IMG/VR virus record: IMGVR_UViG_2703718835_000005
Direction: 5' to 3' (one strand)
DNA from: a virus
Taxonomy: Duplodnaviria > Heunggongvirae > Uroviricota > Caudoviricetes
Length of the DNA: 3,888 bases
Positions 1,033 through 3,466 of this stretch are shown piece by piece (the stretch's first letter is position 1; every line of letters begins with the position of its first letter). Below the pieces are notes generated by a model that saw only the letters and a list, made by a program, of their open reading frames with translations, did no database searches and was not told the origin of the DNA. The translations under genes and the position numbers were made by a program.

Positions 1033-1056
1033 AAAAAATGCCCTCCAATAGAGAGC

Positions 1057-1085
1057 ATTTTTACTGTATGTATAACCAGTGTCAA
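1057..1085 (-). promoter_or_regulatory. Candidate sigma70 promoter reading leftward into int: -35 TTGACA (complement of 1080-1085), 17-bp spacer, -10 AAAAAT (complement of 1057-1062)
   Basis: Seen in sequence: perfect consensus -35 hexamer; the -10 is weak but keeps the critical A at position 2 and T at position 6. The predicted start (~1050) lies just upstream of the int RBS (1041-1046). The LexA-like box fills the spacer. Function is inferred. Confidence 0.3.
1062..1081. promoter_or_regulatory. Candidate LexA (SOS) box TACTGTATGTATAACCAGTG (CTGT-N8-CCAG core)
   Basis: Seen in sequence: 16/20 identity by hand to the E. coli LexA consensus TACTGTATATATATACAGTA, with CTG and CAG triplets at the correct spacing and an AT-rich centre. 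A CCAG right half occurs in the natural uvrB box as I recall it. It is the only CTGT-N8-CAG-like element I found in the window, and it sits in the spacer of the candidate int promoter. Confidence 0.45.
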
Positions 1086-1220
1086 TGTATGAAATACTGC
1101 GACCATACATCTCACTGAAGCCATAATGAAGTAGGCTATTCTTTTTGCTATGTGATCATGTAACTTTTGCGGTTAACCTGTGGCTCATTTTTATTTTAGG
1201 CGCAGATATAAAAGCAAAAG

Positions 1221-1412
1221 TTATCGTGAGTTTTTAGTACAGATTTTTTTGGATTTACTAATAGTTCCATCATTGCAAACGAATTTGCCATCTGAGGTAC
1301 AGTGAGAAACACCTCCCTTTTTCCCTGAGCAGGGATAATTTCTAGCATAGGTAGCTAGTGGGTTTAATAACAAAGAACATGACAAAACCACAAAAAATAC
1401 CTTACCAAGCAT
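1221..1412 (-). CDS. Small secreted cysteine-rich protein (63-aa precursor; predicted signal peptide, ~40-aa basic mature peptide with 4 Cys); lysogeny-expressed moron candidate
   Basis: Seen in sequence: ATG at 1412-1410 preceded by GGGAGG (complement of 1418-1423) with a 5-nt spacer; the start is only 15 nt downstream of the cI stop, same strand. Translation [23 protein letters not shown]|[40 protein letters not shown] has a short n-region, hydrophobic core and AxA-like signal peptidase I site (TYA). Region is AT-rich (~37% GC by hand count). Function unknown. Confidence 0.6.
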
Positions 1413-1427
1413 AATTTCCTCCCGGTA

Positions 1428-1997
1428 CTATTTAACATACTTGACTGTTAAACTTATAATTTTACCAATTATTTCAATGTCTTCTATCTTGCATTCGAAG
1501 GCTCTGTTTCCACCCTCGACGAAGATTCTTCCACCGGGTAAACGAGTAATGTCACGGATCGTTATTTCGCCATCAATACTTATTACCCATTTACCATCAC
1601 GTATATCATCAAATTCCTTATCACAAATAAATTCAGAATTATTATCTGTGATTACAAAAAGATTCTTGAATGTCGACGGTAGAAATTCTCTATCGAAAAT
1701 ATAAAAACCGTCTTCACACAAGGCCCCATCAGATAATACATATTTAGCAACTTCCATAGTATTTGTATTACCTGAAGTTTGCTTTGAACCATGCCCGGTT
1801 GTGAGCCAATTAAGCGAGGTGCCTGTTTCAAGGGCGCACTGGATTACCCATTCTGCTGGGAATGAGTCACGCATGTAGCGTGTGGCGAGTGTACTTTTAG
1901 AGATTCCTAAATGATCGCACAACGCCTGTCGAGTCTTGAATCCATAAGCTTCTACCATGCGCTCTATGGCGCCTCGTCCGCCTTTCTCCAAATTCAT
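1428..1997 (-). CDS. cI: Phage 186-type CI immunity repressor (N-terminal HTH domain plus C-terminal oligomerisation domain), 189 aa from ATG at 1997-1995
   Basis: Seen in translation: N-terminal HTH-like segment (AYGFKTRQALCDHLGISKSTLATRYMRD), and a C-terminal region (IRDITRLPGGRIFVEGGNRAFECKIEDIEIIG) compatible with 186 CI architecture as I recall it. GGAG (complement of 2003-2006) lies 5 nt upstream of the ATG at 1997; the GTG at 2003 used by the ORF track would overlap that RBS. Position is divergent from the apl/cII operon and upstream of int, as in phage 186. Confidence 0.8.
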   Translation of the reverse strand: MNLEKGGRGAIERMVEAYGFKTRQALCDHLGISKSTLATRYMRDSFPAEWVIQCALETGTSLNWLTTGHGSKQTSGNTNTMEVAKYVLSDGALCEDGFYIFDREFLPSTFKNLFVITDNNSEFICDKEFDDIRDGKWVISIDGEITIRDITRLPGGRIFVEGGNRAFECKIEDIEIIGKIISLTVKYVK

Positions 1998-2021
1998 GGT
2001 CACTCCAAGTGAACTTTTATC

Positions 2022-2050
2022 TTGACGATTTCACTGTGCGATCGTATGTT
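2022..2050 (+). promoter_or_regulatory. Candidate lytic promoter pR: -35 TTGACG (2022-2027), 17-bp spacer, -10 TATGTT (2045-2050), reading rightward into apl/cII
   Basis: Seen in sequence: good -35/-10 match with optimal spacing, located in the 125-bp cI-apl intergenic region with predicted start near 2057. The face-to-face pL expected from the phage 186 model could not be placed confidently. Confidence 0.45.
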
Positions 2051-2077
2051 TATGGTGTTCACAAAATACAAACGATC
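2040..2077. promoter_or_regulatory. Imperfect 38-bp palindrome (arms GATCGTATGTTT 2040-2051 and ATACAAACGATC 2066-2077, 10/12 complementary) overlapping the pR -10 and start; candidate repressor (CI and/or Apl) operator
   Basis: Seen in sequence: dyad centred at 2058/2059; each arm starts with a GATC Dam site (2040-2043 and 2074-2077). The operator role is inferred from its position over the promoter. Confidence 0.35.
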
Positions 2078-2122
2078 CGTATTCGTCCTGATTAATCATC
2101 ATTAAACGAGGAATGTTGCATC

Positions 2123-2893: not shown

Positions 2894-3094
2894 ATGCTGA
2901 CGAAAGAACCATCATTTGCATCGCTGCTGGTAAAACAAAGTCCGGCAATGCACTACGGTCACGGCTGGATCATGGGTGAGGATGGTAAACGCTGGCATCC
3001 GTGCCGTTCGCAAGATGAATTATTGGCAGAACTATCAACGAAAAAACGGGGGAACAAATGGCTATTGAAGGCGCTGCGGCGACTGTTCCATTAA
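2894..3094 (+). CDS. Small early-operon protein, 66 aa (in the position of phage 186 fil); function unknown
   Basis: Seen in sequence: ATG at 2894 is 8 nt after the cII stop (TGA 2884-2886), with GAGG (2885-2888) 5 nt upstream. Translation MLTKEPSFASLLVKQSPAMHYGHGWIMGEDGKRWHPCRSQDELLAELSTKKRGNKWLLKALRRLFH. The GTG at 2864 used by the ORF track would overlap the end of cII and has no RBS. The fil assignment is by synteny only. Confidence 0.5.
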   Translation: MLTKEPSFASLLVKQSPAMHYGHGWIMGEDGKRWHPCRSQDELLAELSTKKRGNKWLLKALRRLFH

Positions 3095-3399
3095 GCCCCG
3101 GTGAACGCCTGAATGGACTTAATCACATTGCGGAGTTAAGGGCGAAAGTATTTGGCCTGAATATTGAGTCAGAGCTGGAGCGGTTTATTAAAGATATGCG
3201 TGATCCACGGGATATCAATAATGAACAAAATAAACGGGCACTGGCTGCTATATTCTTTATGGCAAAAATTCCAGCTGAACGTCATAGCATCAGCATTAAT
3301 GAGCTGACCACTGACGAAAAGCGGGAGCTGATTAAAGCAATGAATCATTTTCGTGCAGTGGTGAGCTTATTTCCCAGACGGCTAACCATGCCGAATTAA
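3058..3399 (+). CDS. Early-operon protein, 113 aa (in the position of phage 186 dhr); function unknown
   Basis: Seen in sequence: GGGGG (3048-3052) lies 5 nt upstream of the ATG at 3058; the start overlaps the 3' end of the preceding ORF by 37 nt in a different frame; TAA stop at 3397-3399. The dhr assignment is by synteny only. Confidence 0.6.
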   Translation: MAIEGAAATVPLSPGERLNGLNHIAELRAKVFGLNIESELERFIKDMRDPRDINNEQNKRALAAIFFMAKIPAERHSISINELTTDEKRELIKAMNHFRAVVSLFPRRLTMPN

Positions 3400-3466
3400 C
3401 CAACTAATGAAATTAATGGCGTAAACCCGCCGGGCATCCCTTTATCTAAATTCAGGAGAATTGATT

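Follow-up and report, generated by a model that had tools for sequence, protein, structure and literature searches.

The stretch of DNA analyzed here, hereafter the window, is 3888 bases long and comes from a virus of the Caudoviricetes (IMG/VR record IMGVR_UViG_2703718835_000005). Judged by its gene content, it is the lysogeny-control (switch) region of a phage-186-type (Peduoviridae) prophage of Escherichia coli, with the integrase gene int, a cargo gene, the repressor gene cI, apl and cII in that order. Extended to fil, this order agrees with the annotated switch map of coliphage 186, in which a leftward lysogenic operon begins with cI; cI faces apl-cII-fil and has int behind it (Table 1). 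Our subject is cI itself, whose guanine-cytosine (GC) content falls abruptly between the part encoding the N-terminal helix-turn-helix (HTH) DNA-binding domain and the part encoding the C-terminal oligomerization domain. An earlier note, made from the letters of the DNA alone, took this step as the mark of a hybrid, domain-swapped repressor. We find instead that the step is probably a trait of the repressor family, set in a gene that is a recombinational mosaic with its junctions at other points.

The GC step inside cI is confirmed as real and exceeds what chance would produce: the observed likelihood ratio was reached in only 14 of 5000 shuffles of the gene's codon order, and the two halves differ by Fisher's test (p = 1e-4). 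Exact counts of 50.9% (1781-2000), 33.4% (1431-1780) and 36.6% (1111-1427) reproduce the values of about 51, 33 and 37% that the earlier note had obtained by hand. The maximum-likelihood change point lies at nucleotide (nt) 209 of the gene, in codon 70 (window 1788), which bears out the note's placement of the break near codon 72 at the expected domain boundary, as the two Pfam domains cover residues 9-72 and 83-181. The part for the N-terminal domain has a GC content of 50.5% and a GC content at third codon positions (GC3) of 0.50, and codons 73-189 have 33.6% and 0.256, respectively. The low-GC island as a whole spans about 1031-1789, its left end being the int start codon. Flanks of about 50% GC had been claimed for int and apl-cII; this is accurate for cII (50.4%) and too high for int (47.1%) and apl (43.2%).

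Table 1. Features of the window, with positions counted from its first base.
Feature	Position	Strand	Remarks
int, tyrosine integrase	1-1032	minus	343 amino acids from MAVRK; stop codon 1-3; PF24624 and PF00589
AT-rich int-cargo spacer, left edge of the low-GC island	1033-1220		GC 34-36%
ORF63, YdcA-family small secreted protein (predicted), cargo ('moron') gene	1221-1412	minus	63 codons; NF007463
cI, whole gene	1428-1997	minus	189 amino acids; PF07022 residues 9-72, PF16452 residues 83-181
cI part for the C-terminal (oligomerization) domain, residues 83-189 and stop	1428-1751	minus	PF16452; AT-rich
cI part for the inter-domain linker, residues 73-82	1752-1781	minus	gap between Pfam domains; variable in protein alignment
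cI part for the N-terminal HTH DNA-binding domain, residues 1-72	1782-1997	minus	PF07022; backbone GC
cI-apl switch region	1998-2122		pR-like promoter 2022-2050 (plus strand); 186-type inverted repeat 1999-2013
apl/cox-like gene, 73 amino acids	2123-2344	plus	synteny with 186 apl; relatives annotated Cox or regulator
cII (PF06892), fil, DUF5347, DUF2732, start of DksA-type zinc-finger gene	right of apl	plus	186 order
Recombination tract versus Escherichia sp. MOD1-EC7003 (L004): cI 5' two-thirds, operators, apl	1651-2400
Block of cargo and distal C-terminal-domain coding part	1101-1520		linked alleles about 9% divergent, e.g. BL21(DE3)

We compared the two parts of the gene in 40 cI homologues, taken from 29 species genomes, from annotated phages (186, KP12, HP1, F108, two Vibrio phages, PSP3, SopEPhi, ENT90 and RE2010) and from contigs encoding selected homologues. 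The C-terminal part had the lower GC content in 39 of the 40, with a mean difference of -0.098 and a range of -0.20 to +0.01; the window, at -0.17, stands at the strong end of this family range. A drop in the same direction is present in phage 186, in phages that carry no cargo, and in alleles for which both halves are of equal age with respect to the window. Because 39 of 40 homologues drop the same way, the step belongs to the family as a whole and was not left behind by a single domain swap. The earlier note had itself named such a shared drop in related repressors as the observation that would speak for an intrinsic composition effect; with the drop found, the step can no longer be taken as the mark of one recombination event, and it is not specific to a recent swap, since homologues lacking one have it as well.

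The step was then divided into its amino-acid and codon components by calculating the GC content expected from the amino-acid sequence and the codon usage of the window's other genes. For the N-terminal half, expectation (0.504) and observation (0.505) coincide; for the C-terminal half, 0.406 was expected and 0.336 observed. The expected drop, set against the observed one, therefore assigns about 58% of the window's step to amino-acid make-up and about 42% to AT-rich synonymous codons. Residues with AT-rich codons (F, Y, M, I, N and K; FYMINK) account for 38% of the C-terminal domain of the window's CI as against 20% of the N-terminal domain, and the C-terminal domain is poor in G, A, R and P. 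Across the family, 38 of 40 homologues have the higher FYMINK content in their C-terminal domain, and the GC content of codon positions 1 and 2 is lower in the C-terminal half in 31 of 34 loci. The synonymous codons of the C-terminal half are foreign to the phage backbone, with a GC3 of 0.256 where backbone usage predicts 0.42, and the adjacent ORF63 behaves likewise (0.30 against 0.44 expected from backbone usage), which supports an AT-rich synonymous usage that the two share and that is unlike the backbone. GC3 is lower in the C-terminal half in 29 of 34 loci. When G/C-ending codons were compared between the halves with codon families as strata, the 34 non-redundant loci gave a Cochran-Mantel-Haenszel odds ratio of 1.43 (p = 1e-8), and the odds ratio was 1.45 in the four phages whose cI abuts int. 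This AT-rich codon bias is widespread in the enterobacterial family and so dates no event.

The two domains differ strongly in the constraint to which they are subject. In Citrobacter, Kosakonia, Enterobacter, Klebsiella and Salmonella, many homologues combine an N-terminal domain that shares 95-100% identity with that of the window and a C-terminal domain that shares only 29-60%, and some E. coli alleles show the reverse (78-80% and 92-95%, respectively). Domain swapping across genera, considered as an interpretation of the first pattern, was rejected, as synonymous sites are saturated in both halves. Against the Citrobacter/Kosakonia alleles, the proportion of synonymous differences (pS) is 0.75-0.81 in both halves, and nonsynonymous divergence (dN) rises from 0.000 for the N-terminal half to 0.33 for the C-terminal one. 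Both halves are equally old and unequal constraint suffices; the combination of an identical N-terminal domain with a C-terminal domain about 55% identical in these two genera reflects unequal purifying selection rather than a recent swap. Among close alleles, the ratio of dN to synonymous divergence (dS) is about 0.02 for the N-terminal domain and 0.07-0.15 for the C-terminal domain, values that give no indication of positive selection on the latter. The cI-apl operator spacer (1995-2115) is 88-95% identical in the Citrobacter/Kosakonia relatives, as compared with 75-88% for the neighboring coding DNA. This conservation, together with that of the N-terminal domain, fits a co-conserved repressor-operator pair, and one immunity specificity appears to have been kept across several genera. 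Invariant N-terminal and variable C-terminal domains are also compatible with the idea that operator specificity is kept while the oligomerization domain changes. Against the Citrobacter/Kosakonia alleles, 68 codons of the N-terminal domain contain no amino-acid change at all at a pS of 0.76-0.81.

Recombination has left visible tracts within cI, and these do not follow the GC step. Between the window and Escherichia sp. MOD1-EC7003 (L004) there are 16 differences over 901-1650 and 253 over 1651-2400, two intervals of 750 nt each. Scored in segments of 100 nt, identity is 95-100% from about 150 to 1600, 42-92% over 1601-2350 and 97-100% over 2400-2950; the N-terminal half has a dS of 1.10 and the C-terminal half one of 0.24, and the cI-apl switch region is wholly different. 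In this relative, which is the clearest case, the cassette of N-terminal domain, operators and apl was exchanged in an otherwise 98% identical phage, and the AT-rich block is not the swapped piece. An E. coli contig (L036) has the reverse pattern, with a dS of 0.35 in the N-terminal and 1.08 in the C-terminal half, 77-87% identity up to about 1700, 90-100% identity over 1725-2380 and different cargo. In BL21(DE3), 36 differences fall in 1101-1500 (9%) and 6 in 1501-2400 (0.7%). That the two halves differ in synonymous divergence from one and the same relative (L004, L036) is as would be expected of a chimeric repressor.

The 81 distinct haplotypes collected from IMG/VR and from genomes include alleles that differ by more than 3% at each of four places: the cargo, the distal C-terminal part, the middle part and a patch at 1641-1720. 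The cargo and distal C-terminal alleles are linked to each other, yet they occur in all four combinations with the alleles of the 1641-1720 patch, and at least 16 recombination events are required over 1000-2400. By these patterns, cI is a recombinational mosaic whose N-terminal/operator and C-terminal/cargo parts are combined in more than one way. Junctions among close relatives were placed at about 1500-1520 (BL21-type alleles), about 1650 (L004) and 1700-1725 (L036); none fell at about 1788, where the GC step and the domain boundary would have put one. Within the C-terminal domain, a divergent patch at window 1658-1717 (CI residues about 94-113; 12 differences per 50 nt; changes C94R, R103K, E104G, N112K and L113P) is present in about 30 of the 81 haplotypes and in L004, L046 and L047, and looks like a small imported tract.

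Two positions do frame the low-GC island in comparisons with more distant loci. Of 13 loci compared by BLAST, 9 lose their alignment at 1088-1094 and a tenth at 1120. The int DNA is 93-96% identical to that of KP12, 813R9, L027 and L033 up to about 1092, and DNA similarity to KP12, 813R9, L007, L026 and L027 stops at about that position and resumes at 1778-1795. The C-terminal domains inside the 1092-1778 bracket are still homologous proteins, and the bracket is best read as marking where conservation ends, that of int to the left and that of the N-terminal domain to the right, with a middle between them that evolves fast and is often replaced. Farther to the right, window 2900-3400 (fil/DUF5347) has a nucleotide diversity of 10-16% among close relatives, as compared with 1-2% around apl; BLAST alignments are interrupted at about 2970-3060, and in some relatives fil is longer (297 versus 201 nt) or extra DNA is present, suggestive of another mosaic junction.

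The gene beside the AT-rich half of cI, ORF63, matches NF007463 with 114.6 bits (cut-off 93) and bears the name 'YdcA family protein' in the Prokaryotic Genome Annotation Pipeline (PGAP). With its signal-peptide-like N-terminus, this match agrees with the secreted-peptide gene that the earlier note had predicted at this place. ORF63 starts 15 nt after the cI stop codon and has a GGAGG ribosome-binding site, which suggests co-transcription with cI. On the minus strand, we identified neither a convincing promoter ahead of ORF63 nor a terminator-like site behind it; the sole terminator-like site belongs to the plus strand. Just upstream of int, in the AT-rich spacer, the minus strand has a promoter-like site at 1085-1057 (TTGACA-17-AAAAAT), a consensus match only.

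In 33 of 37 loci, the gap between cI and int holds 370-3287 bp of cargo at 29-41% GC; the gap is empty of cargo in 186, SopEPhi, ENT90 and RE2010. With unrelated low-GC genes between conserved flanks, it has the appearance of a prophage cargo (moron) slot. The mean step was -0.044 in the four cargo-free loci and -0.106 in the rest. Phages with int and right-arm genes about 95% identical carry unrelated cargo and C-terminal domains 40-55% identical, and the window and L036, which differ in cargo, have C-terminal domains that are 86% identical, as is likewise the case for L012 and L013. The cargo in KP12/813R9 (L001/L002), L033-L036 and L044 includes a 1677-bp SMC-like 'chromosome segregation ATPase', KAP-family NTPases and an AAA protein, which are plausible candidates for anti-phage defense. 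In L036, a second CI-like gene (4621-5544; 307 amino acids) occupies the cargo slot directly after the 189-amino-acid cI (4001-4570), with a KAP-family NTPase and int beyond it. On inspection by eye, the proteins of this class consist of two tandem CI-type HTH repeats and a CI C-terminal domain; CI-like proteins of about 300 amino acids are common (P0009, P0014, P0016, P0024 and P0050), and the CI of PSP3 (286 amino acids) has about 98 extra N-terminal residues. The second gene of L036 may be a repressor acquired by capture and conferring immunity to a different type of phage.

By every sequence-level measure applied, the window's CI is a member of the 186 CI family. Its HTH domain matches PF07022 with 114.5 bits (E = 2.7e-33; cut-off 22) and its C-terminal domain PF16452 with 95.5 bits (cut-off 27), and a phmmer search of the PDB returned full-length 186 CI (2FJR; E = 2.5e-31) and the C-terminal domain (2FKD; E = 1.8e-14). 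The CI of 186 binds operators made of inverted repeats, at pR and at flanking sites, and its β-rich C-terminal domain assembles into a wheel of seven dimers (14-mer). A match to Peptidase_S24 (16.3 bits) remained below the cut-off of 23.3; in 186, induction works through the Tum antirepressor, not through LexA-like self-cleavage. The apl/cox-like protein matched no Pfam or NCBIfam model. The window's repressor shares with 186 CI the two-domain architecture, the position between int and apl/cII and the lower GC content of the C-terminal half, but it is only about 33% identical over the aligned part, and 186 lacks cargo between cI and int and has a small GC drop (47.7 to 43.2%). The operators must differ as well, because a single 186-type inverted repeat, GTCAC-N5-GTGAA at 1999-2013, was found in the window: searching for TTCAC-N5-GTGAA yielded this one good site and otherwise nothing beyond chance, with 3 matches at up to two mismatches where 1.7 are expected. 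In phage 186, one flanking operator of CI (FL) is situated within cI itself, some 270-286 nt past the start codon (about codons 90-96); no 186-style FL operator was found inside the window's cI, and 12-mers from the cI-apl spacer recur only trivially.

Lambdoid imm434/imm21 hybrids and wild phages of lambda immunity are mosaics of the immunity region. P2 Hy dis is a further example (PMC1904268). The trading of immunity cassettes by temperate phages that otherwise resemble each other is already classical. As in those mosaics, a cassette of repressor, operator and anti-repressor is exchanged here (1651-2400 versus L004) with a junction inside the repressor gene; unlike in the lambdoid phages and P2 Hy dis, the exchange is in a 186-type switch. 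In a survey of 31 P2-like phages, Nilsson et al. (2011) reported that none had a chimeric regulatory region and that recombination was confined to close relatives (PMC3448106), and our data fit their statement on close relatives. Portions of two further papers describe cargo/defense hotspots in P2-like prophages (PMC9122126) and a minor hotspot between integrase and primase (PMC13586616). The locus resembles these in having variable AT-rich cargo between conserved core genes, but here the slot directly follows cI and the variable zone reaches the 3' half of the repressor gene, a point not made in those portions. In a literature search of incomplete coverage, which is no proof of novelty, we found no description of an intragenic GC step or of N-/C-terminal mosaicism in cI of the 186 type. 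We consider the window an ordinary mosaic phage immunity region and the family-wide intragenic GC step a modest addition, not a new kind of system.

The best explanation, to which we give a probability of roughly 0.7, is that the step is a family trait arising from the amino-acid composition of the domains and a regional AT codon bias, in a mosaic cI, and not a recombination scar. The N-terminal HTH domain would read the operators and the C-terminal domain would build the oligomer, and two causes, both common to most of the cI family, lower the GC content of the sequence encoding the latter: its richness in the residues F, Y, M, I, N and K, and the use of AT-richer synonymous codons than the backbone in both the 3' half of cI and the cI-int cargo region. 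The 3' half is under much weaker purifying selection and forms, with the cargo slot, a variable and often exchanged segment between two conserved anchors, int and the N-terminal domain. Exchange between related prophages has reshuffled cI block by block. We infer that weaker constraint and exchange in an AT-rich cargo neighborhood keep the synonymous sites AT-rich; the different C-terminal domains may also alter oligomerization. In the model of the earlier note, a foreign AT-rich module, comprising the C-terminal domain and the secreted-peptide gene, was joined once at the domain boundary, so that the GC step is the junction. This would account for the codon usage that the C-terminal half and ORF63 share, for the gap in similarity to KP12, 813R9, L007, L026 and L027, whose limits of 1092 and 1778-1795 bracket the island exactly, and for the unrelated cargo and 40-55% identical C-terminal domains of phages with nearly the same int and right arm. 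We nevertheless regard it as unlikely. The step recurs in 39 of 40 homologues, cargo-free phages among them, and 58% of it comes from amino-acid make-up; both halves are equally saturated at synonymous sites relative to the Citrobacter/Kosakonia alleles that share the N-terminal domain; and the boundary at 1778-1795 is the end of protein conservation with no demonstrable junction, those that can be demonstrated lying at about 1500-1520, 1650 and 1700-1725. What stands of the hybrid-repressor claim is a mosaic cI whose parts recombine; its junction is not at the step, and the AT-rich half is not demonstrably the newcomer. The claim that an AT-rich module had been recombined onto a resident N-terminal domain is contradicted by the comparison with L004, in which it is the cassette of N-terminal domain, operators and apl that has been replaced.

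A pure effect of protein composition, with neither regional codon bias nor recombination, is quite improbable. It would leave unexplained the GC3 of the C-terminal half (0.256 against 0.42 expected), the stratified odds ratio of 1.43 over 34 loci (p = 1e-8) and the recombination tracts directly visible inside cI, even though the expected GC content already drops from 0.504 to 0.406, FYMINK content (38 of 40) and codon positions 1 and 2 (31 of 34) follow the same trend, and distant phages (HP1, F108, Vibrio) have no codon-level effect. Selection on the DNA itself has also to be considered, whereby the AT-richness of the cI 3' half and cargo would serve to silence (H-NS-type) or insulate int and cargo, or would make the DNA flexible enough to wrap around the CI wheel. 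The regional GC3 difference does persist despite saturated synonymous sites, and the FL operator of 186 lies inside cI, but the window's cI holds no FL-like copy of the 1999-2013 motif and DNA conservation is not raised within the C-terminal half among alleles that share the N-terminal domain, so that we rate this highly improbable. A broader proposal, rather unlikely in our estimate, joins several of these elements: the cI 3' half and the cargo slot would be one AT-rich exchange zone anchored by the 5' end of int and the N-terminal part of cI, repeated cargo swaps would drag in pieces of foreign C-terminal domains, prophages with the same operators would thus carry diverged and possibly non-interacting oligomerization domains, and the AT-richness would be kept by this traffic or by selection at the DNA level.

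Several observations weigh against the family-trait explanation that we prefer. The step is only -0.02 to -0.07 in 186, SopEPhi, ENT90, RE2010, PSP3, HP1 and F108 and +0.01 in one Vibrio phage, and steps of -0.10 to -0.20 occur mainly in the enterobacterial clade with AT-rich cargo. Because the step varies in size and is largest mainly in that clade, some of the effect may belong to the clade rather than being intrinsic. HP1, F108 and the Vibrio phages lack the codon-level effect (odds ratio 0.81, not significant), and the surveyed loci are phylogenetically related, so the counts overstate their independence. Relaxed selection with AT-biased mutation alone leaves the GC3 contrast unexplained; the simple argument from relaxed selection is insufficient because synonymous sites are saturated in both halves. 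The GC content of the C-terminal half is weakly correlated with that of the adjacent cargo (r = 0.30, p = 0.09); taken over cargo GC content and gap length (Spearman -0.14), the correlation is weak or absent. That the C-terminal-domain type travels with its cargo was considered and rejected as a strict rule: cargo and distal C-terminal alleles are linked among close E. coli haplotypes, and the link breaks across species.

The module is widespread. E. coli WL7562 matches segment 1000-2130 with 100% DNA identity, and of the 5426 complete E. coli genomes, 730 have matches to the module, BL21(DE3) among them; the C-terminal half of cI is present in 631 E. coli genomes and the N-terminal half with the operators in 539. 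BL21(DE3) (L045, NC_012892.2 872265-876597) has the int-ydcA-like-cI-apl module within a decayed prophage remnant that still encodes the repressor, with cII and the replication genes annotated as truncated pseudogenes.

For the reading of phage genomes, the analysis is a caution that a sharp intragenic GC step need not mark a recombination junction. For the 186-type phages, it provides a case, in a very common E. coli prophage, of a repressor whose operator-reading domain is extremely conserved, whose oligomerization domain is much freer, and whose gene is shuffled in blocks. If it is true that divergence of the C-terminal domain blocks mixed oligomers of co-resident prophages, this would bear on the coexistence of immunity groups.

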